A DNA stretch of 10,385 bases. Origin: Opitutales bacterium. Lineage in GTDB: Bacteria > Verrucomicrobiota > Verrucomicrobiia > Opitutales > Coraliomargaritaceae. The translations under genes and the position numbers were made by a program. The DNA lies in NCBI GenBank assembly GCA_049598495.1, contig JBMYNR010000046.1, positions 1-10,385 on the forward strand, written 5' to 3'. Each line of letters starts with the position of its first letter. The first letter of the stretch is position 1. Shown piece by piece: positions 920 through 10,385 of the stretch. Under the pieces are notes generated by a model, which ran no database searches, was not told the origin of the DNA, and was given only the letters and a program-made list of their open reading frames with translations.

Positions 920-2206
920 ATGCCGAACGATTTCTACGCCCCCTTCGACCTCGAACGTTTTCCTGAAACGACCCCACTTGAGGGCGAATACCGCAGCGCC
1001 TTTCAAATTGAGCGTGACAGGATTATCTTCTCCTACCCGTTTCGCAGGCTACAATCGAAGACACAGGTCTTTCAATCGGGCGAGTATGACTTCTACAGGA
1101 CGCGCCTGACGCACTCAATCGAGGTCGCAAAGGTGGGCCGCTCGATCTGCGAGTTCTTATTAGCAAGCTCCCCACTGCTACACGATAAGTTCTACATCGA
1201 CCCCGACCTGACCGAGGCCGTTTGCCTCGCGCACGATCTAGGCCATCCTCCCTTCGGGCACATCGGCGAGCGTAAACTCAATGAACTCATGAGTCCATAT
1301 GGAGGATTTGAAGGCAACGGACAAACCCTCCGCATCCTAACCGAACTCATCTACGAGCGACCGGGGCGCACCCAAGGAATCGCCCCGACCCGGGCCTTTC
1401 TGGATGGCGTCATGAAATACAAGGCAACTCACTCGGAGTGGGTCGCACAGACCTCCAAAACACCCAAGAATCATTTCATCTACAACGATCAAACAGAGTG
1501 GCGCGATCGTGTTTTCGGCGGCAGTGCCCGGCCGGTAGAGTTAAAGGAGGTTGCAGCGCTCAACGCGTTTAAGAGTATTGAATGTCAGATCATGGACTGG
1601 GCCGATGATACGGCCTATTCACTCCACGATATCGTCGACGGGATACATGCACGCTACATCAGCGTCGGCAGTCTAACCGAATGGGCCGCGCAGAAAACAC
1701 TCTCGACGGAGGCTTCGAAACTCGTCGAAACTCTATGCGATAAGATCAAGTCGAATAGCTATGAAGCCTACTTTGGCGCCAAAGTAGGGAGTTTCGTTCA
1801 CGCCTGCAGACTGCGGGAACGCAACGGCTTTCTCAGCGAGCGAACAAACCGGCATGCATTCGATCTAGAAATCGACCCCGATATACAAGCGGAGAGCGCA
1901 CTCTATAAAACCATCGCACTGGATCTGATTTTTAAATCCACCCAACTCCAGCAGATTGAATTCAAGGGCGGTTATATTCTTGAGCGCCTATTTGCAGCCT
2001 TAGTGGATCATTGCGTGGAACCGGGAAGTAAGGGATTAAACCTACTCCCCGGATCGGTGCAGGAGCTTCTTGCGCAAGAACTGGAAGCGAACGGACGCCA
2101 CAGGCGACTCTGCGATTATAGTGCAGGGCTTACCGACGCGCTCGCCGTTCGCACCTACAAGCGGCTATTCGACGCCGATTTCGGCTCCATTGCGGAATTG
2201 CTGTAA
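920..2206 (+). CDS. dgt: Deoxyguanosinetriphosphate triphosphohydrolase (dGTPase, HD superfamily)
   Basis: Motifs [53 protein letters not shown] and C-terminal DYSAGLTD. Confidence 0.95.
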
Positions 2207-2248
2207 GGGCCGTGCTGCGCACGGAGTCAAAAGTTGCAGCCTAGCTGC

Positions 2249-2352
2249 AGTTAAGTGGTTGAGTAGAGCCGATATTCACACTTAACTATCACACCTCTTA
2301 ACTTTGCGCTATGCGCTCCACTCAACCACTCAACTCGGCGCGGAGCGCCGCC
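2249..2352. repeat. Intergenic inverted-repeat element made of 8-bp CACTYAAC units (repeat family 2)
   Basis: 2249-2269 AGTTAAGTGGTTGAGTAGAGC is the reverse complement of 2315-2335 GCTCCACTCAACCACTCAACT at 19/21 positions. Extra CACTTAACT and CTCTTAACT units lie inside. The element ends with hairpin CGGCGC-GGA-GCGCCG. Confidence 0.75.
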
Positions 2353-2354
2353 CC

Positions 2355-3479
2355 ATGAAATATAAGACTCAAACTCTTCAAGAGCTCAAAGAGAAGTCCC
2401 CCCTCGCTGGCTCAAAAAAGGCACTCGTCGGTATCGACGGCTTCGTCGATAAGATTGTTCATCCGGTCGATCAACGCTCCGGCCCGGGCGATCAGTTTCA
2501 GGCGATTCCGACGATCACTGATTTCGCCAACCGAATTGGATCCGCTGCCGGGAAGAGCGCCAATATTGAGCTTGCGCCCGTCGTTGAGAAACTCGGAGGC
2601 AACGGCCCAATTATGGCCAATGCACAATCCGCGCATGGCCTCCAAGTTCGCTACCTTGGCGCCCTCGGGCGTGACAGCATTCACCCCGTTTTTCATGATT
2701 TTGCTGAACGAACAAAGGCCATTTCAATCGCTGACCCAGGCGTGACGCTCGCCGCTGAATTCACCGATGGAAAAATTCTTCTCGGATCCATGGCCAGCCT
2801 CGACGAGATCACCTATGAGCGCATCTGCGAATTACTGGGGAAGGATGCGTTCATTTCGATCCTAGGCGAATCCGATCTTATCACGATGACGAACTGGACA
2901 ATGATCCCTTATCTGACTGATATCTTCCGGAGTCTGATTAGCGATGCCCTCCCCCGGTTACCAAAAAACAAAGACCGTACTTTCTTCTTCGATCTCGCTG
3001 ATCCCGAGAAACGCTCTGAAGCCGATCTTCTCGAGGTCCTGCATCTCTTCAAAGAGTTCGAATCCTTCGGAAAAGTCATCCTAGGACTGAACCTGCGTGA
3101 GGCTGAACAAGTCGACGCGTTACTCGGCTTTGAATCGCTGGCTAATACACCGGAGAATCTGCAAACCATGGCAGCGCGCATTCGCGAGACACTTCAACTC
3201 AACACCGTGGTGATCCATCCTGTAGCCGACTCCGCCTGCGCCACCCCGGAAGGCACCGCATACGTCGAAGGCCCCTTCTGTAAAAAGCCAAAAATCACAA
3301 CCGGAGCCGGTGATCACTTCAACTCTGGCTTCGTCACGGCCAGACTCCTCGGCCTCTCCCCTGAAGCAGCCCTCACCGTGGCCGTGGCCACCTCCGGCTA
3401 CTACGTACGCACCGCCGTCAGCCCAAGCCTTAACGACCTCAGCGAATTTATCGAAACAGGCGGAGCCCTTGTCGAGTAG
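2355..3479 (+). CDS. PfkB/ribokinase-family carbohydrate kinase
   Basis: N-terminal LGGNGPIMANA and C-terminal TTGAGDHFNSGF ribokinase-family signatures. ATG 2355 is preferred over TTG 2304, which lies inside the repeat element. Confidence 0.85.
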   Translation: MKYKTQTLQELKEKSPLAGSKKALVGIDGFVDKIVHPVDQRSGPGDQFQAIPTITDFANRIGSAAGKSANIELAPVVEKLGGNGPIMANAQSAHGLQVRYLGALGRDSIHPVFHDFAERTKAISIADPGVTLAAEFTDGKILLGSMASLDEITYERICELLGKDAFISILGESDLITMTNWTMIPYLTDIFRSLISDALPRLPKNKDRTFFFDLADPEKRSEADLLEVLHLFKEFESFGKVILGLNLREAEQVDALLGFESLANTPENLQTMAARIRETLQLNTVVIHPVADSACATPEGTAYVEGPFCKKPKITTGAGDHFNSGFVTARLLGLSPEAALTVAVATSGYYVRTAVSPSLNDLSEFIETGGALVE

Positions 3480-3495
3480 GTTGTCGCAAGGCCTC

Positions 3496-3538
3496 CTCCA
3501 CCCAACGACCCAATCACTCAACCCGGCGTAAGGCCGCC
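3496..3538 (+). repeat. Second copy of the repeat family 2 right arm
   Basis: CTCCACCCAACGACCCAATCACTCAACCCGGCGTAAGGCCGCC aligns with 2316-2352 CTCCACTCAACCACTCAACTCGGCGCGGAGCGCCGCC, with one extra 8-bp unit. Confidence 0.65.
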
Positions 3539-3562
3539 ACCTCTCGACCACAGCCCACACCC

Positions 3563-3633
3563 AACCGCTCATCACCACTTATCACACGCTTATTATTTCA
3601 CCCATCCAACAAAATTAGCGGTCATTAGCGGTC
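3563..3633 (+). repeat. 10-bp-unit inverted element, copy A (repeat family 1)
   Basis: AACCGCTCAT CACCACTTAT CACACGCTTAT, a 20-bp spacer, then ATTAGCGGTC ATTAGCGGTC. Confidence 0.9.
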
Positions 3634-3662
3634 TAAAACAGACACACAAGCCACATTCAAAA

Positions 3663-4304
3663 ATGCCCGGTTTATTCATCACATTCGAAGGCGGCGAAGG
3701 TTGCGGCAAGTCGACCCAAATCGCGGCTCTTAAAGCGAAGCTTGAAGCCGAGGGTCACGAAGTTATTCAAACCCGTGAGCCCGGGGGCACCTCTCTTGGA
3801 GAAGCCATTCGTCACCTCCTACAGCATGACGAATCAGGCCACGGCATGTCAGCCGAAACGGAACTGTTGCTCTTCGCCGCCAGCCGTGCCCAACACGTGC
3901 GCGAACGGATTGCGCCATCCATTGCTGATGGCAAGGTTGTGCTCTGCGATCGATTCATGGATTCAACCACCGTTTATCAGGGCGTCGCCCGCGCGATCCA
4001 TCCGGACCGAGTCGAGGCCATCAACCAGTTCGCAGTCGGCCAGGCAACTCCCGATCTGACCATCCTGATCGACCTCCCGCCGGAAGTTGGCCTCGCCCGC
4101 GTCCACGCCCGCAGTGAAGGACAACTCGACCGTATGGAACAGGAAGCCATCGAGTTTTTCGAAGCCGTCCGAAAAGGCTATCTGGATTTAGCGGCTGAAG
4201 AACCCGAACGCTTTGTCACTCTCGACGGAAGTAAAAGCATTGAAGAACTTGAGGTGTTAATCTGGGACACCGTAAAAGCGAAAATTCAGTCACCTAAAAT
4301 ATAA
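3663..4304 (+). CDS. tmk: Thymidylate kinase
   Basis: FITFEGGEGCGKSTQ P-loop, TREPGGT, ELLLFAASRAQH, VLCDRFMDSTTVYQG and PDLTILIDL. Confidence 0.97.
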   Translation: MPGLFITFEGGEGCGKSTQIAALKAKLEAEGHEVIQTREPGGTSLGEAIRHLLQHDESGHGMSAETELLLFAASRAQHVRERIAPSIADGKVVLCDRFMDSTTVYQGVARAIHPDRVEAINQFAVGQATPDLTILIDLPPEVGLARVHARSEGQLDRMEQEAIEFFEAVRKGYLDLAAEEPERFVTLDGSKSIEELEVLIWDTVKAKIQSPKI

Positions 4305-4310
4305 GGCTAG

Positions 4311-4392
4311 AACCGCTCATCACCACTTATAACACGCTTATCATTTACAACCATCCTACAACATTAGCGGTAATCAGCAGTAATTAGCGGTA
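4311..4392 (+). repeat. 10-bp-unit inverted element, copy B
   Basis: AACCGCTCAT CACCACTTAT AACACGCTTAT, a 21-bp spacer, then ATTAGCGGTA ATCAGCAGTA ATTAGCGGTA. Confidence 0.9.
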
Positions 4393-4441
4393 TAAAAAAG
4401 ATTCACTAAAAGTCTGATTATTAGTAAACTATCCTAATGGC

Positions 4442-4849
4442 ATGAAGGAACCATCCAGCAGTGAATATTTAAGCAAAGAGGGCTACGAACTGATGGCTGC
4501 GGCCTTTGAGGTACATGCCGAACTGAATGGTGGTCTAGCAGAAGAAATCTACCAAGAGAGCCTACAGTGGGAACTACACTTGCGTGTGATTTCCTACACA
4601 AGTAGGGAACAGCTGAACGTTTTCTACAAAGGACATCAGCTAAACAAAAAATACATTCCGGACTTACTTGTCTTTGACGAGATAGTAACAGAACTAAAGG
4701 CAGTCAAAGAACTGCTGCCCGAACACGAGCAACAGTTGATCAACTATATGCGCATCACAAAAAAAGCAGTGGGTTATCTAATTAATTTTGGTCCGATGAA
4801 ACGGCTTCAATGGAAGCGCTATATCATAAAAGAATTTATTCCTAAATAG
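4442..4849 (+). CDS. GxxExxY protein (PD-(D/E)XK nuclease-like, PDDEXK_3 family)
   Basis: AAFEVHAELNGGLAEEIYQESL contains the GxxExxY motif. PDLLV...ELKAV is the nuclease-type core, and QLINYM...GYLINFG is the family C-terminus. The gene is more AT-rich than its neighbours. Confidence 0.92.
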   Translation: MKEPSSSEYLSKEGYELMAAAFEVHAELNGGLAEEIYQESLQWELHLRVISYTSREQLNVFYKGHQLNKKYIPDLLVFDEIVTELKAVKELLPEHEQQLINYMRITKKAVGYLINFGPMKRLQWKRYIIKEFIPK

Positions 4850-4903
4850 CTACATATCATTAGCAGTTCAGAGGTCTGACACATACATACTGATAATTTT
4901 CAA

Positions 4904-5028
4904 AACCGCTAATCACCACTTATCACACGCTTATAATTTTTTCTCATTCAGCAACATTTACGATAATCTCAGAATAAATTCCATAATTGCTACAGATTAT
5001 TAGCGGTCATCAGCGGTGATGAGCGGTC
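4904..5028 (+). repeat. 10-bp-unit inverted element, copy C (long spacer)
   Basis: AACCGCTAAT CACCACTTAT CACACGCTTAT, a 64-bp spacer, then ATTAGCGGTC ATCAGCGGTG ATGAGCGGTC. The first 21 bp of the spacer resemble the A and B spacers and are followed by what may be decayed right-arm units (ATTTACGATA...). Confidence 0.9.
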
Positions 5029-5054
5029 AGACTCATGCATGCGAAAACAACCAA

Positions 5055-5126
5055 GCCCGCCAATTACCACTTATCAAACGCTTATCATTGTTGCTCATTC
5101 AACAACATCGCCGTGATGATCAGTTC
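5055..5126 (+). repeat. 10-bp-unit inverted element, copy D (degenerate)
   Basis: GCCCGCCAAT TACCACTTAT CAAACGCTTAT, spacer CATTGTTGCTCATTCAACAAC, then a decayed right arm ATCGCCGTGATGATCAGTTC. Confidence 0.75.
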
Positions 5127-5132
5127 AAATCT

Positions 5133-6278
5133 ATGAAATACGAATTCAACAAGTGCCCCGACAGAACGGGCTGCGGTAGCCTAAAATGGGATAAGTACAA
5201 AGGACGCGACATTCTGCCACTCTGGGTCGCGGACATGGACTTCCTCACTGCCCCGGAAATCCTCGACGCGCTTCAGCGGCGCCTCGACCACGGCGTCTTT
5301 GGCTACACCATACCTCATGAAGCCCCGATCGAAGCGGTGATCAACTACCTCGCTCGCCAGCATGGCTACAGCGCAAAGGCAAGCTGGCTGAACTTCCTCC
5401 CCGGACTCGTCCCCGCAATCAACCTCTGCTGCCACGCTTTTCTAAAGCCCGAGGAGTCGGCCATCACGATGACCCCGGTCTATCCGCCCTTTCTCAGCGC
5501 ACCTGATTATGCCGGACGTGAGCTAATCAAAGTCCCACTCTGCCTGAACGCTTCAGATCAATGGACGCTCGATATCGATGCCATGGAAGCGGCAGTGAGG
5601 CCAAATACCCGCATGCTCATTCTTTGCAGTCCACACAACCCCGTCGGACGCGTCTTTAATAAAGAAGAACTCAGCGCACTGGCTGATTTCTGCGAGCGGC
5701 ACGACCTGATCATCATCTCCGACGAGATCCACTGTGACCTCGTCTTCGATGCTGAGGCGAAGCACACCGTCACCGCTACCCTCAGCGGGAAAATCGCTGA
5801 CCGCACCGTCACCCTCATGGCGCCCAGCAAGACCTACAACTTACCCGGTCTCGCCTGTGCCTTTTCCGTCATAGAAAATCCCATGCTACGCGCCCGCTTC
5901 CGCGAAACGATTCGCGGGATCATCACCGAGGTCAACTGCTTCGGCTACGCCGGAATCACCGCCGCCTACAACCATGGTGAACCCTGGCGCCAAGCTCTGC
6001 TCACCTATCTGCGTGGCAACTACGAGTTGGTCTACGACTTCATGAAAACGGAACTACCCGAGATCACCTTCCGCCCGATGCAGTCGACCTACCTAGCCTG
6101 GTTCGACGTCAGTCAGCTCGAATTAAAAGACCCCGTCGGACATTTCGAAAAACACGGGGTCGGCCTCTCCGACGGCACGCCCTTTGACGGTCCGCAACAC
6201 CTGCGCCTAAACTTCGGCTGCCCGCGCACGCGGCTCGAAGAAGGGCTGGAGAAGATGAAAGTGGCGGTCCACACATAA
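5133..6278 (+). CDS. MalY/PatB-family PLP-dependent C-S lyase/aminotransferase
   Basis: SLKW, LPLWVADMDF, HGVFGY, LCSPHNPVGRV, ISDEIHCDL, APSKTYNLPGL (PLP lysine) and LRLNFGCP. ATG 5133 is preferred because the ORF-track extension from 5016 runs through repeats C and D. Confidence 0.93.
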   Translation: MKYEFNKCPDRTGCGSLKWDKYKGRDILPLWVADMDFLTAPEILDALQRRLDHGVFGYTIPHEAPIEAVINYLARQHGYSAKASWLNFLPGLVPAINLCCHAFLKPEESAITMTPVYPPFLSAPDYAGRELIKVPLCLNASDQWTLDIDAMEAAVRPNTRMLILCSPHNPVGRVFNKEELSALADFCERHDLIIISDEIHCDLVFDAEAKHTVTATLSGKIADRTVTLMAPSKTYNLPGLACAFSVIENPMLRARFRETIRGIITEVNCFGYAGITAAYNHGEPWRQALLTYLRGNYELVYDFMKTELPEITFRPMQSTYLAWFDVSQLELKDPVGHFEKHGVGLSDGTPFDGPQHLRLNFGCPRTRLEEGLEKMKVAVHT

Positions 6279-6383
6279 AACCGACTGCGTCGGAAACCGC
6301 TAATCACACGCTAATTTAATCCACAGCGTCGAATCGGCCATTGCCGATTCTCATAAGCGGTTATTAGCGGTCAAAAAATGGAT
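6271..6383 (+). repeat. 113-bp duplicated intergenic block containing element copy E (6295-6372)
   Basis: Matches 8243-8365 with 5 substitutions and one 10-bp indel. It contains hairpins CCGAC-TGC-GTCGG and GAATCGGC-CATT-GCCGATTC, the malY stop region and the ATGGAT start of the next gene. Confidence 0.93.
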
Positions 6384-6758
6384 CATATAAGATTAGACCG
6401 CTGGCTCTGGGCGGTGCGAGTGTATAAAACCCGCAGCGATGCCACCGATGCCTGCCGCGGCTCCGCAGTGCGGCTCAATGGCGGGATCGCCAAGCCCTCG
6501 GCCAAAGTACGTGTGGGTGATACCGTTGTTGCCCGCACCAAAGCACTCACGCGCACCTTACAAGTCAAAGCCCTCACGGATAAGCGAATCGGCGCCCCGC
6601 TCGTTGCCGAATACCTCGACGACCAAACCCCAGAATCCGAATACGAAAAAGCCCGCGAAAAGCGGGCCCATGCCAAAGTGTTTACCCATAAAGGCGGCGG
6701 GCGACCAACCAAGAAAGATCGCCGTGACATTGAAAAACTAATCGGATCGGAGACATGA
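6378..6758 (+). CDS. hslR: Ribosome-associated heat shock protein Hsp15 (S4 RNA-binding domain)
   Basis: IRLDRWLWAVRVYKTRSDA, AKPSAKVRVGD and C-terminal GRPTKKDRRDI. Confidence 0.93.
   Translation: MDHIRLDRWLWAVRVYKTRSDATDACRGSAVRLNGGIAKPSAKVRVGDTVVARTKALTRTLQVKALTDKRIGAPLVAEYLDDQTPESEYEKAREKRAHAKVFTHKGGGRPTKKDRRDIEKLIGSET
6721..6752 (+). repeat. 32-bp direct repeat, left copy (3' end of hslR)
   Basis: GCCGTGACATTGAAAAACTAATCGGATCGGAG; 31/32 identical to 8131-8162. Confidence 0.92.
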
Positions 6759-6843
6759 ACCCCCAAGGCAGGACAGTAAAATAGCCGCGTGATTTTTGGA
6801 TGCTATAGCAGCTATCACCCATCAATCAATCTCTCGCCTAACT

Positions 6844-8007
6844 TTAAGAATGATTTGAAAATGAGTTTCCGCCTGCCAGTTCTACCGCTTCTGCGAGAAA
6901 AGACAGTCCAGTTTCAATGTAAGCTCTTTTCTTATTTAAATACGGCTGCTCGCTATCCGTGCTTACCAAAATCAAGCGTGCATTTGGATAGGAAGACTGA
7001 AAGGCGGAAAAATGATTCTCTTGGCCGGACTTAAGCTTCCACTTGCATTCGATCGCAAGCGGTGCCTCTCCTCGTCGAGCGAGCACAAAGTCTATCTCTC
7101 GTTTGCGTTTATCCCGCCAATAAAATAAGTGCTCCGGCTCAAAATGAGCACGCAACTCGTCCAATACCAAATGCTCCCAAAGTCCCCCATAATCTTCATG
7201 CCGCAAGTCCCGCCACCCCCGCGCATGACAAACAAATCCCGTATCAAATCCATACACTTTCGGCATCGATACAATTTCCTTTTGCGGGTTCTTGAAAAAT
7301 GGACGCAATACATGGACGGCCCCCGTTGCTTCCAACACACCAAGATAGTTTGATAGCGTCTGTCGACTGGCACCACAAACCGAAGTTAAGCTGCTGAGTT
7401 CACATAACTGCCCACTCTGTGTCAGCAGGAGCTCTAAAAGCCGCATGAACGCGGTGCGCTTCTCCAAGCGAAATAACTCCTGAATATCCCTCGCCCAGAA
7501 AGCATCCATCCATTCCACAAAATCTTTTTCCGGAAACCCCTCTGAAATAAGATTCTCGGGCAAGCCTCCATGGTACATCCGAGTCTTCAAATCAGCTCCA
7601 AACACTTCCAATTCACTGAACAATACGGGAGCCAGGTGCAGCTGCCTTTTTCGTCCTGAAAGTGTGTCGCGAAATCGTCGACTCGCTCCGAGCGTCGAAG
7701 ATCCCGTCGCCAAAACTCGCAAATTCGGGAAATGATCCGCAGCTATTTTTAGAAGTTCAGACGGCTGTGCAACCCGATGCACTTCATCTAGGATCAAACG
7801 ATTGTTTCCCGCCTGCTCTAGAAAGCCCTCAGGGTCCTCTTCAATCAGTCTGCGCACGCGCGGCAACTCACAGTCAAAATAAACCACATCTTGCAAACTG
7901 CGAGTCAAAGTCGTCTTCCCCACCCGACGCACACCCGTCAACCACAGCACCGGACGTTCCCGCCAAGCCTGCTCCACTCGACTTTGCCAATAAACTCTAT
8001 TTACCAT
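6844..8007 (-). CDS. AAA_14-family ATPase with C-terminal DUF4143 (PD-(D/E)XK-like) domain
   Basis: Walker A GVRRVGKT, Walker B LILDEVH, ATGSS, L.GR, GGLP, PKVYGFDTGF, LWEHLV and YWRD...EIDFV...AIECK. ATG 8007 (MVNR) is preferred over TTG 8067. Confidence 0.9.
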   Translation of the reverse strand: MVNRVYWQSRVEQAWRERPVLWLTGVRRVGKTTLTRSLQDVVYFDCELPRVRRLIEEDPEGFLEQAGNNRLILDEVHRVAQPSELLKIAADHFPNLRVLATGSSTLGASRRFRDTLSGRKRQLHLAPVLFSELEVFGADLKTRMYHGGLPENLISEGFPEKDFVEWMDAFWARDIQELFRLEKRTAFMRLLELLLTQSGQLCELSSLTSVCGASRQTLSNYLGVLEATGAVHVLRPFFKNPQKEIVSMPKVYGFDTGFVCHARGWRDLRHEDYGGLWEHLVLDELRAHFEPEHLFYWRDKRKREIDFVLARRGEAPLAIECKWKLKSGQENHFSAFQSSYPNARLILVSTDSEQPYLNKKRAYIETGLSFLAEAVELAGGNSFSNHS

Positions 8008-8130
8008 ATGCAAACAGAAATAACTTTTAGATATACCAAATGCAAATCTAATTTCATGTAATTCCAAGCACTAACTGTAGATGATGATTCGCCATCCAGA
8101 AATAATTTAAGCCTACTTGGAGTGCGCACA

Positions 8131-8165
8131 GCCGCGACATTGAAAAACTAATCGGATCGGAGTGA
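8131..8165 (+). repeat. 32-bp direct repeat, right copy: orphan hslR 3' end with its own stop codon
   Basis: GCCGCGACATTGAAAAACTAATCGGATCGGAG followed by TGA reads RDIEKLIGSE*, whereas hslR ends RDIEKLIGSET*. Confidence 0.9.
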
Positions 8166-8171
8166 AGCCGA

Positions 8172-8191
8172 GACCGCTCATCACCACTAAT
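8172..8191 (+). repeat. 10-bp-unit element, copy F (left arm only)
   Basis: GACCGCTCAT CACCACTAAT, located 6 bp after the orphan hslR stop codon. Confidence 0.8.
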
Positions 8192-8242
8192 GAAAATCCT
8201 CATGCGAGCATAGCGACAAGACCAGACCATTGAGGATTCAAT

Positions 8243-8365
8243 ACACATAAAACCGACTGCGTCGGGAACCGCTCATCACCACTAATCACACGCTAATCTA
8301 ATCCACAGCATCGAATCGGCCATTGCCGATTCTCATAAGCGGTACTTAGCGGTCAAAAAATGGAT
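8243..8365 (+). repeat. 123-bp duplicated intergenic block containing element copy G (8267-8354)
   Basis: Direct repeat of 6271-6383 with one additional 10-bp unit. Confidence 0.93.
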
Positions 8366-8989
8366 TCCTCTCTGCAACAAATTGATTACGAAGCTTCCTG
8401 CCCTGAATTACCAGAGCCGTTTAAATCTTTAGTCGTGCACGCCGACGAACTGTGGAACCAATTCTGGGCGCAAAAGCTGAACAAACGTTATCCTCGTTAT
8501 ATTGCCAGCGAGCCGGCACAGGTGTATGCCGTGCTTAAACACGTGCGCGATGAGGACCTCGCCTATGGCGATCGTTTCATCGAATGGGGCAGCGGATTCG
8601 GGCTGGCTAGCAGTATGGCTTCCATGCTCGGCTTTGAAGCCACCGGCATCGAACTCGAAGAAGGCCTCGTGAAGATTGCGGAAAAACTCGCCGAAGCCCA
8701 CCAAACGGGTGCTGATTTTATTCACACCAGCTACATCCCTGAAGGTTACATTAGCTACGACCACATCGGCGGCAGCGACATCGTCCCCGACGACAGTTTT
8801 GGCCACCAAGCCGGACCACCCAAATATGAAGGGATGGAGATCGGCTTGGACGAGGTCGATGTCTTCTTCGTCTACCCCTGGCCCGGCGAACAGGAAATGA
8901 TGCTTAAGCTCTTTCAATCCGTCGCCAGCGAAGACGCCCTACTCATCGCCTACCTCGGTGACCGGGAGATCTGTCTGTATCGGCGTTAA
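8360..8989 (+). CDS. Class I SAM-dependent methyltransferase-like protein
   Basis: Motif I-like FIEWGSGFG, acidic beta-2 ATGIELE, and DVFFVYPWPG at the beta-4 position. Substrate unknown. Confidence 0.75.
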   Translation: MDSSLQQIDYEASCPELPEPFKSLVVHADELWNQFWAQKLNKRYPRYIASEPAQVYAVLKHVRDEDLAYGDRFIEWGSGFGLASSMASMLGFEATGIELEEGLVKIAEKLAEAHQTGADFIHTSYIPEGYISYDHIGGSDIVPDDSFGHQAGPPKYEGMEIGLDEVDVFFVYPWPGEQEMMLKLFQSVASEDALLIAYLGDREICLYRR

Positions 8990-9058: not shown

Positions 9059-9106
9059 GCCAGACGGGAGTCTGGCGTTCCCGGGATCGCCAGACTCCCG
9101 TCTGGC
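9059..9106. repeat. 48-bp near-perfect palindrome (two REP-like units back to back)
   Basis: GCCAGACGGGAGTCTGGCGTTCCC|GGGATCGCCAGACTCCCGTCTGGC has one mismatched pair. Each half is itself a hairpin, GCCAGA-N6-TCTGGC. Confidence 0.85.
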
Positions 9107-9153: not shown

Positions 9154-9230
9154 TCCCTACCCGTTCATAAGCGGTTCCCGCACAGTCGGCCCGGCGCTGC
9201 AGACAACGAAGGCGACACAGACTCACTCTA
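9154..9230 (+). repeat. Direct repeat of at least 77 bp, left of the toxin-antitoxin pair
   Basis: Matches 10308-10385 (window end) with 3 substitutions and a 1-bp indel. Confidence 0.92.
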
Positions 9231-9429: not shown

Positions 9430-9876
9430 TCAAAGCAATTGATCAATATAATTATCCACCCGTACACACGTCTGCTCCAATGCTGGAATCACTCGCTGGC
9501 AGTAGACAAATAAATCGGGTAGTTGCAGCCCTGCATAGTCGTGCGCAATGCGGTTTCGAACATCCTTCAATTCACGCAACCAATCCACCCCCGGAATTAA
9601 CCCACGAGCCTCCGCACGATTGGCCGTATCCAACAAAGTCCCTGGCTCAATCAGCTCATACCGGTCAATCGCCCGCAAGACACGATTGATCAACAAATCG
9701 ACCACACGCGCAAATCGACTGGTAAACGCCTCCACTTTTTCCAATTCAAGCTCGGACCATTTCCCCGCGCCCGCAACAGAGGAAACCGATTCAATCGAAA
9801 AACTCAAATGCTTCCGCGCATCCAGCAACTCCTGCCGCGCAGACTGTAAAACTGCTGCATATACCGAATCACTCAT
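9430..9876 (-). CDS. HEPN-domain RNase toxin (nucleotidyltransferase substrate-binding family)
   Basis: RNRIAHDY matches the HEPN R-X4-H motif. The protein looks all-helical, and the gene has a 4-bp overlap with the upstream MNT gene. Confidence 0.85.
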   Translation of the reverse strand: MSDSVYAAVLQSARQELLDARKHLSFSIESVSSVAGAGKWSELELEKVEAFTSRFARVVDLLINRVLRAIDRYELIEPGTLLDTANRAEARGLIPGVDWLRELKDVRNRIAHDYAGLQLPDLFVYCQRVIPALEQTCVRVDNYIDQLL

Positions 9877-10160
9877 AGCCGTTCACCTGTCTCCATTGCA
9901 ACCCGAGCAATCGCACTCAGGCCAACACGTTCATTTTCGATGATCAAATCGAGCTTCTGCCAACCAATACGATCCAAGATTTCGCGCCGTATCGGCCAAA
10001 GGTCATCAAAACCAAGCCGATCTGAAAGCACCAACAGATCAATATCGCCCCCACGCGCCTGATCATCCACACGAGAGCCAAACAAGAGAACCCGTGCATC
10101 AGGATCAGCCTTATGGATCGAGTCACGAATTACTTTTTGTTCCTGTTGGGTCAGTCTCAT
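9873..10160 (-). CDS. Minimal nucleotidyltransferase (MNT) antitoxin
   Basis: 95 aa with LFGSRVDDQARGGDIDLLV (GS-X10-DXD) and the third Asp in KLDLII. Confidence 0.9.
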   Translation of the reverse strand: MRLTQQEQKVIRDSIHKADPDARVLLFGSRVDDQARGGDIDLLVLSDRLGFDDLWPIRREILDRIGWQKLDLIIENERVGLSAIARVAMETGERL

Positions 10161-10285: not shown

Positions 10286-10315
10286 GGATCGGCCCCTTGG
10301 CGATCCTTCCCTACC
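10286..10315 (-). repeat. REP-like palindrome with GTAG head
   Basis: The - strand reads GGTAGGGAAGGATCGCCAAGGGGCCGATCC, with hairpin GGATCG-N9-CGATCC. Confidence 0.55.
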
Positions 10316-10385
10316 CGTTCATAAGCGGTTCCCGCACAGTCGGCCCGGGCGCTGAATACACCGAAGGCGACACAGACTCACTCTA
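10308..10385 (+). repeat. Direct repeat right of the toxin-antitoxin pair (runs off the window end)
   Basis: Copy of 9154-9230; 10348-10385 reads GAEYTEGDTDSL. Confidence 0.92.

Follow-up and report, generated by a model that had tools for sequence, protein, structure and literature searches.

Tandem-unit hairpins at the operon junctions of an Opitutales bacterium and their association with cassettes of a GxxExxY nuclease gene

The 10,385-nucleotide (nt) contig JBMYNR010000046.1 of an Opitutales bacterium (Coraliomargaritaceae, Verrucomicrobiota; assembly GCA_049598495.1, forward strand), termed the window in this study, carries genes in the order dGTPase-pfkB-tmk-malY-hslR-methyltransferase, with copies of one repeat family at several of the junctions and a small gene of the GxxExxY (PDDEXK_3) family between tmk and malY. 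The locus raises the question of what these repeats are and how they came to lie between the genes. An initial annotation, made from the sequence alone, had listed seven copies of an oriented intergenic element built from units of about 10 bp, likened their arrangement to a cassette array, and proposed a non-autonomous element or a class of recombination sites. All seven copies were found at their annotated positions when the window sequence was re-read (Table 1). They are probably, though far from certainly, gene-less solo hairpins of a selfish cassette family formed around the GxxExxY nuclease gene.

Hairpins in the window and the junctions they occupy

In a complete copy, two or three units (AACCGCTNAT, CACCACTWAT, and CACACGCTWAT, in this order) form the left arm, 20-64 nt of spacer follow, and two or three ATNAGCGGTN units make up the right arm. 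The unit ACCGCTNAT has 18 exact matches on the two strands of the window, against 0.26 +/- 0.51 expected, and none of 200 shuffles reached 18; a repeat search of the window recovered the same families. In every copy of this window the left arm matches the + strand and the right arm the - strand of the pattern, confirming the single orientation annotated at the outset, and the copies differ by whole units (two versus three), also as annotated. Over 88 nt, copies 5 and 7 show 94% identity, and the small flanking hairpin CCGACTGCGTCGG accompanies each; they are therefore recent duplicates and not independent. Copy 4 is decayed, with 65% identity in the direct-repeat search, an E value of 9.1 with the arm model, and a fold z of -0.7, which is not significant. 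The copy annotated as a left arm only (8172-8191) is a truncated member of a longer subfamily, full copies of which are present in the same genome (C19:3361-3515, C33:3941-4082, and C6:56640-56793); it shares 76% identity with the element that lies downstream of the GxxExxY gene in the metagenome contig L091.

The arms had been predicted to pair into an imperfect hairpin, and hairpins do fold, imperfectly: six copies gave -5.4 to -18.6 kcal/mol as + strand DNA (z -0.7 to -5.5). Folded as RNA, the five good copies gave -11.9 to -30.5 kcal/mol in the sense direction (z -3.1 to -4.9) and -23.3 to -46.6 kcal/mol in the antisense direction (z -3.7 to -7.1), copy 3 reaching -30.5 kcal/mol on the + strand and -46.6 kcal/mol on the - strand. 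The antisense strand folded more stably than the sense strand in all five copies compared, because top-strand A-C oppositions turn into G-U pairs on the bottom strand. DnaA boxes, the controlling inverted repeat of chaperone expression (CIRCE), LexA boxes, and sigma-70 promoter hexamers were ruled out by eye from the unit sequence.

The order of the six host genes is kept across the genus, and the junctions are closed in relatives. The pfkB stop codon abuts or overlaps the tmk start codon (TGGTAA, then ATG) in 13 of 16 relatives, tmk and malY share an ATGA overlap in four, malY and hslR are separated by a 13-nt spacer in five, and hslR and the methyltransferase gene share an ATGA overlap in four (G003, G008, G015, and G017). 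The same junctions in the genome of the window (G000) contain 95-830 bp of inserted sequence. As the genes are syntenic with closed junctions in relatives, it was the repeats that moved and the genes that stayed. Thus, the elements were inserted at the junctions of an operon that ancestrally had no gaps. The comparison with a cassette array fails for pfkB, tmk, malY, hslR, and the methyltransferase gene, which form an operon that is ancestral and syntenic and whose codons abut or overlap in relatives; of the genes in this stretch, the GxxExxY gene alone shows the behaviour of a cassette.

In G011, the nearest relative, whose Tmk protein is 82% identical, the hslR/methyltransferase junction is filled by the hairpin family of the window; G005 likewise has this family upstream of the methyltransferase gene. 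Other operon junctions of G011 (L039, G011:C66, 2580-2745 and 5100-5260) carry other unit types (CATCAATCAT... and AGTTGAGT/ACTCAACC), and its tmk/malY junction holds a gene of the four-helix-bundle family PF05635. These differing hairpin families at the same junctions indicate that the junctions were colonised repeatedly.

The repeats extend well beyond this operon. An arm profile (nhmmer, E < 0.01) matched 33 arms on 15 contigs of the 1.75-Mb, 73-contig genome of the window, 11 of them on the 10.4-kb contig of the window itself, and 29 of the 33 lay outside open reading frames (ORFs) of at least 80 amino acids on a crude ORF map. A conserved module (ATACGGCCC...CTAAG.TCCTTTGCC.CATGTCCCC) follows many right arms in this genome. 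Double units numbered 39 in G000, 32 in G005, 28 in G011, and 45 in G018, with 0-2 in the other 15 of the 19 genus genomes, where a reversed-pattern control gave 0-1 per genome; the distribution within the genus is therefore patchy, the repeat being abundant in four of 19 genomes. In G018 (G018:C267:77-3087) and G005 (G005:C145:125-2348), complete ACCGCTNAT-type hairpins stand head to tail in tandem with a period of ~156-180 bp and no genes between them. A strict full-element pattern retrieved nine loci from a collection of species-representative genomes, all with the three-unit architecture, and the metagenome-assembled genomes (MAGs) concerned are labelled Coraliomargaritaceae, Opitutaceae, Verrucomicrobiae, Pirellulales/Pirellulaceae, and Nitrospira. 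One Pirellulaceae genome contains 84 near-identical arms, against none with the control pattern.

A dispersed, non-autonomous class rather than a locus-specific feature, as first proposed, is supported by this genome-wide occurrence, by the patchiness in relatives, by filled and empty sites, and by presence/absence polymorphism in the population (see below). No match to a described family was obtained, and copies both occur outside this locus and vary.

Association with the GxxExxY gene

Contigs from four seawater runs were compared with the window. An X5 contig from another sample (record 19; 2624 nt long, 0-1 differences) runs from position 4331 straight into position 4925 and thus lacks 593 bp that include the GxxExxY gene. 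The joint leaves a single hybrid hairpin; one end of the segment lies in the left arm of copy 2, and the ten letters ACACGCTTAT can be assigned to either side of the joint. With no shared stretch longer than 12 nt, and no shared 31-mer, between the two arms, an artefact of k-mer assembly is unlikely. These data reveal gain or loss of the GxxExxY gene together with one hairpin as a unit of 593 bp, the crossover lying within an arm. Strains diverging by 1.5-5% (X6 and X10) carry a different hairpin type after malY, following position 6271, and a ACTCAACC-type arm precedes tmk; the ACTCAACC hairpin of one divergent strain has a 16-nt insertion after 2328 that corresponds to two extra 8-nt units. 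In the metagenome contigs L090 and L091, with GxxExxY proteins 82% and 81% identical, the arrangement hairpin-gene-hairpin is found at the hslR/methyltransferase junction, unlike in G000, where the gene lies between tmk and malY. In related species, therefore, the gene occupies another junction of this operon that also bears hairpins.

G000 contains approximately 10 PDDEXK_3 loci and nine PF05635 loci, and these small genes are flanked by inverted arms of about three tandem short units, the unit type being specific to the locus. The flanking inverted arms exceeded the 99th percentile of 300 random controls at 16 of the 19 loci (9 of 10 for PDDEXK_3 and 7 of 9 for PF05635), and 17 of the 19 cassettes are co-oriented with all their neighbours. 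The corresponding figure in five genomes of other phyla was 15 of 20 PDDEXK_3 genes, and arms of this kind also flank loci across the genus. Two layouts recur, type I with a left arm, the gene, and a right arm, and type II with a hairpin, the gene, and a hairpin; the window is of type II (copy 2, GxxExxY gene, copy 3). The arms of PDDEXK_3 loci follow a common plan, an outer unit AACCG... and inner units NNACG... with a period of ~10 nt (for example, ACCGCGAATG GACGCGAAGA CACGCGAAT; ACCGTTAATG GACGTGAAT...). The units of the window conform to this plan and belong to the GxxExxY-cassette arms, a class defined here. PDDEXK_3 was the only gene type found between arms of the window's family.

A maximum-likelihood tree of 49 PDDEXK_3 proteins was compared with the units in the 130-nt flanks of their genes, counted without regard to strand. 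A clade of 13 rows (support 100/99) contains the protein of the window and every gene flanked by CCGCTNAW or ACGCTNAW units. At least two units were present in the flanks of 11 of the 13 clade members and of one of the 36 proteins outside the clade, and the two exceptions in the clade carry close variants of the unit. Members of the clade, whose unit type is (A/C)CGCTNA(T/A), come from the Verrucomicrobia genus, from two genomes of Planctomycetota, and from contigs of metagenomes. The arms around a type I gene copy in G035 are of the same ATTAGCGTTCATCAGCGGT kind as the 84 dispersed arms of that genome. On this sequence evidence, unit type tracks the GxxExxY clade. The initial suggestion that the units are protein-binding sites gains indirect support from the co-variation; its original basis, a 10-11 bp period placing the units on one helical face, is not general, as the sister four-helix-bundle cassettes use units of 7-12 nt.

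The AlphaFold model of the GxxExxY protein (predicted local distance difference test, pLDDT, 93.2) has a PD-(D/E)XK fold and comes closest, among solved folds, to Cas4 SSO0001, lambda exonuclease, and the Hjc resolvases of archaea (TM-scores 0.4-0.57). The sequence had no meaningful match among solved structures, and the fold search returned only generic PD-(D/E)XK neighbours. In the alignment, G31, E34, Y37, K86, Q98, N115, and F116 are invariant and D74 is present in at least 90% of rows. From these conserved residues and the fold of the model, the product is predicted to be a minimal PD-(D/E)XK nuclease that looks catalytically intact.

Table 1. Repeat elements and associated features of the window (positions count from the first nucleotide of the contig)
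Feature	Position	Strand	Description
Other-family hairpin	2249..2335	+	AGTTGAGT / ACTCAACC, 8-nt units; dGTPase/pfkB junction; DNA fold z = -3.0
Copy 1	3563..3633	+	Solo hairpin, pfkB/tmk junction; left AACCGCTCAT CACCACTTAT CACACGCTTAT, spacer 20 nt, right ATTAGCGGTC x2
Copy 2	4311..4392	+	Solo hairpin, immediately 3' of the tmk stop codon and 5' of the GxxExxY gene; 3 left units, spacer 21 nt, 3 right units
Polymorphic segment	4332..4924	.	593 bp; rest of copy 2, GxxExxY gene, start of copy 3
GxxExxY gene	4442..4849	+	GxxExxY / PDDEXK_3 small nuclease gene, 135 amino acids; Pfam PF13366 3.7e-36; TIGR04256 7e-37
Copy 3	4904..5028	+	Solo hairpin 3' of the GxxExxY gene; 3+3 units, spacer 64 nt
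Copy 4	5055..5126	+	Decayed; left GCCCGCCAAT TACCACTTAT CAAACGCTTAT, right arm unrecognisable; malY start 5134 just beyond
Copy 5	6295..6372	+	2 left + 2 right units; malY/hslR junction
Small hairpin module and copy 5	6279..6372	+	Module CCGACTGCGTCGG; right arm ends 5 nt before the hslR ATG
Truncated copy	8172..8250	+	Left arm 8172-8191; longer subfamily, interior GAGAATCCTCATCCGAGCATAGCGACAAGACC
Copy 7	8267..8354	+	3 left + 2 right units
Small hairpin module and copy 7	8251..8354	+	hslR/methyltransferase junction; right arm ends 5 nt before ATG 8360
Single-unit remnant	9163..9190	-	CATAAGCGGTTCCCGCACAGTCGG; one unit and small hairpin, reversed; arm model E = 9; second copy 10317-10344

Several further features of the window and its genome touch on these elements. 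The longest malY ORF starts at a GTG at 5016, inside copy 3, and homology with relatives places the true start at the ATG at 5134; automatic annotation would probably over-extend malY into the repeat (5016-5133). A gene for a DUF4143/AAA_14 ATPase (6844-8067, - strand) is a G000-specific insertion after hslR (segment 6759-8162), flanked by two direct copies of 32 nt from the hslR 3' end (6721-6752 and 8131-8162, 97% identical); in G011, hslR is directly followed by a hairpin and then the methyltransferase gene. A HepT-like/nucleotidyltransferase (MNT) toxin-antitoxin pair (9430-10160, - strand) has direct repeats of ~77 nt on either side (9154-9230 and 10308-10385), each containing one element unit and the small hairpin, reversed, and a related module lies at 87-117. 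The methyltransferase gene is followed at 9059-9106 by a 48-nt near-perfect palindrome (24-nt arms, 96% complementary, no loop) whose sequence is unlike the hairpin family, and at positions 7-25 a TTTAGCG/TTGAGCG-type hairpin, like that at C39:14399-14498, is represented by a decayed arm. Elsewhere in G000 (C57:~5150, C9:~40830, and C28:~90), separate GTAG-headed palindromes resembling repetitive extragenic palindromic (REP) sequences (GTAGGGCG...CGCCCTAC) stand beside some hairpin copies and beside Y1_Tnp ORFs that resemble genes for REP-associated tyrosine transposases (RAYTs).

The window comprises an entire contig that begins (1-25) and ends (10345-10385) inside repeats, which evidently stop the assembler. 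Across the genome, several contigs begin or end in repeats, and the repeat breaks the assembly, as several arms adjoin contig ends at a distance of 50-150 nt.

Explanations for the hairpins

On the reading that the copies are solo hairpins of a GxxExxY cassette family, the units would serve as binding sites for the cognate GxxExxY nuclease, and a gene-plus-hairpin unit could enter or leave existing hairpins via recombination within the arms. The solo hairpins would then be deletion derivatives or landing pads propagated in trans, comparable to the relation of REP doublets forming hairpins (REPINs) to RAYTs or of miniature transposable elements with inverted repeats (MITEs) to a transposase. 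A bolder version, which we advance tentatively and hold to be rather less probable, is that GxxExxY proteins are the dedicated nucleases or recombinases of unrecognised selfish elements spanning phyla. Each clade would read its own 10-bp unit, present three times per inverted arm, the gene-plus-hairpin would hop between cognate hairpins, the solo hairpins would be non-autonomous offspring at operon stop/start junctions, and the four-helix-bundle cassettes (of the type known from 23S intervening sequences, IVSs) would be a parallel branch.

Several observations weigh against the preferred reading. PF05635 genes, with an unrelated fold, occupy the same kind of cassette, which argues for shared trans-acting machinery or a passive process and not for a protein-specific one. 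Co-variation of clade and unit would also be expected if the arms were simply inherited with the gene. Solo hairpins occur in genomes in which no gene of the cognate clade was detected (28 arms in G011, nine in G031, 11 in G034, and three in G032), all of them MAGs in which the gene may simply be unassembled; this fits a passive process or shared machinery as well. In the phyletic profile of the 19 genus genomes, PDDEXK_3, PF05635, and Y1_Tnp occur in the same 10 genomes and IntI-like genes in eight of those 10, so that co-occurrence does not point to any one protein. Inspection by eye of four junctions against empty sites showed no target-site duplication, and slippage or a homologous deletion between two direct repeats could by itself account for the 593-bp difference.

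Much of this would suit foldback repeats that spread passively, by replication slippage, template switching, and homologous recombination at permissive junctions, with the small genes as selfish passengers persisting between inverted repeats and no dedicated protein to recognise the units. Unit number differs between strains by whole units, as in the 16-nt insertion after 2328, two unrelated protein folds share one architecture, and different hairpin families occupy the same junction in G000, G011, and the strains of 1.5-5% divergence; copies 5 and 7 were duplicated along with flanking sequence, and the missing target-site duplication agrees with such a process. Against it stand the likeness of unit family and three-unit order in different phyla, the one-to-one match of unit type and protein clade at non-orthologous sites, and the 84 near-identical arms in one genome. 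As these are hard to obtain without the copying of a defined element, we regard a purely passive origin as unlikely, if deserving of attention.

An integron-like system, in which the hairpins are attC-type folded sites for an IntI-like tyrosine recombinase and the GxxExxY gene with its hairpin is the cassette, appears improbable. It would account for the hairpin-gene-hairpin layout, for the gene-plus-hairpin difference of 593 bp with its crossover inside the site, and for the better folding of the bottom strand in five of five copies compared; TIGR02249-like genes are present in eight of the 19 genus genomes, the one in G000 (C33:17797-18312) scoring 187 bits over model positions 145-313 (cut-off 265) and being cut by the contig end. 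The attC core consensus is RYYYAAC for R'' and GTTRRRY for R'. No conserved cores of this kind were found in the elements, which begin AACCGCT... and end ...AGCGGT(C/A/T) (right ends GCGGTC, GCGGTA, or GCGGTT) followed by an A-rich stretch, copy 1 alone being preceded by ACCCAAC. The window contains no integrase, the genes between the hairpins are syntenic housekeeping genes, and the hairpins are scattered over many contigs (arms on 15) and not arrayed beside intI. For the 28 arms of G011 there is no IntI-like match in that genome at E <= 1e-40, and G007, the one complete genome, shows no hairpin array in the 9.6 kb upstream of its intI.

The placement of the hairpins between a stop codon and the next start, with right arms ending 5-6 nt before the ATG (hslR, methyltransferase, C1:97660, and C39:14475), may instead suggest structures kept for a function in mRNA processing, stability, or coupling, or arrays of transcription-factor operators. 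The sense RNA fold (z -3.1 to -4.9 in five of six copies) and the co-orientation of 17 of the 19 small-gene cassettes with all their neighbours are in line with this. The operon works without hairpins in most relatives, and the antisense strand is the more stable in five of five copies. Mismatches on the sense strand of the arms of gene-carrying cassettes (eight G-T, nine A-C, and 26 others) showed no wobble excess and hence no sign of selection maintaining RNA pairing on the mRNA. A consensus scan of 2200-8500 returned promoter- and terminator-like matches at chance (six promoter-like against 5.0 expected, 12 terminator-like against 7.1) and none on the + strand inside an element, and Rfam gave no match; a role of this kind therefore has little probability. 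Classical REPs or REPINs mobilised by a RAYT (Y1 transposase) are an even poorer fit and very improbable. G000 does have four Y1_Tnp-like ORFs, and the elements are hairpin-forming intergenic doublets. REPs are described as palindromes of 20-40 nt with a GTAG or CGTC head (PMC3733652); the arms lack such a head and are not palindromes of that kind, being tandem units without internal dyad symmetry. Furthermore, the GTAG-headed palindromes beside a RAYT-like gene in G000 are of another sequence, and no ACCGCTNAT unit lies within 200 nt on either side of any of the four RAYT-like ORFs.

Relation to known systems and biological meaning

The initial annotation had stated that the pattern fits neither CRISPR, attC, nor classical REP, and the feature tests for all three indeed failed. 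The spacing is not that of CRISPR, with copies 151-3268 nt apart and separated by housekeeping genes. An Rfam search of the window returned no relevant family at E <= 1, the sole match being a sub-threshold Trp_leader on the - strand inside hslR (6643-6713). The elements resemble MITEs and their parent insertion sequences in their terminal inverted repeats around a short, variable, non-coding interior, in the excess of non-autonomous over gene-carrying copies, and in filled and empty sites. They differ in that no target-site duplication was seen at the four junctions and no known transposase family was found between the arms, in their internally repetitive arms, and in insertion tied to stop/start junctions of co-directional genes. 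With attC sites they share imperfect hairpins with conserved ends and a variable centre, the site-gene-site order, the gain or loss of a gene with one site, and a bottom strand that folds better; they differ in lacking R''/R' cores, in being scattered in housekeeping operons instead of arrayed by an integrase, and in the many copies of G011 without an IntI-like gene.

Two further systems have comparable inverted termini. Drosophila foldback elements have long inverted termini of tandem short repeats and copies that differ by whole units; they are eukaryotic, with termini on the kilobase scale and a different or no encoded protein. ORF-bearing 23S rRNA IVSs encode the four-helix-bundle S23p/PF05635 protein, a small gene in a long inverted repeat within a transcribed unit, and the sister cassettes of G000 carry the same family, as named in Pfam. 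The family of the window, in contrast, carries a PD-(D/E)XK gene or none and lies between protein-coding genes, not in rRNA helices.

A close likeness in organisation is with REPIN-RAYT systems, which likewise combine a protein gene having its own inverted repeats with many gene-less intergenic hairpins (PMC3116915, PMC3733652); there, too, repeat families differ by protein clade and are patchy in close relatives. The protein here is a 120-150 amino acid PD-(D/E)XK nuclease and not an HUH/Y1 enzyme, with a putative role as mobiliser, and the arms are three tandem ~10-nt units instead of a GTAG- or CGTC-headed palindrome. The GGGAATC heptamer arrays of Xanthomonas are also inverted pairs of tandem short-unit arrays in intergenic regions; the paper describes 70-75 convergent intergenic pairs per genome with function unknown, discusses G-quadruplexes, and reports no associated gene (PMC4692102). 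They differ in unit length and sequence and are not known to be linked to GxxExxY or PF05635 genes. No published description of GxxExxY hairpin cassettes was found in the searchable literature, to which subscription journals and bioRxiv supplements did not belong.

Taken together, the elements are a non-autonomous class not among the catalogued families, and they point to a repeat-plus-protein system that has scarcely been described and is present in several bacterial phyla. In practical terms, repeats of this family break MAG assemblies. GxxExxY (TIGR04256) and the four-helix-bundle 'IVS protein' are large, widespread families whose function is not known. If these genes are the autonomous cores of the cassettes, this would explain the role of both proteins as well as the origin of the abundant tandem-unit intergenic hairpins in Planctomycetes-Verrucomicrobia-Chlamydiae (PVC) bacteria, Nitrospira, and other groups. 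It would also provide a nuclease-based counterpart to REPIN-RAYT, and the window would then capture a selfish element that wedges between genes coupled in translation, in a streamlined marine genome of 1.75 Mb, and leaves the operon undestroyed.

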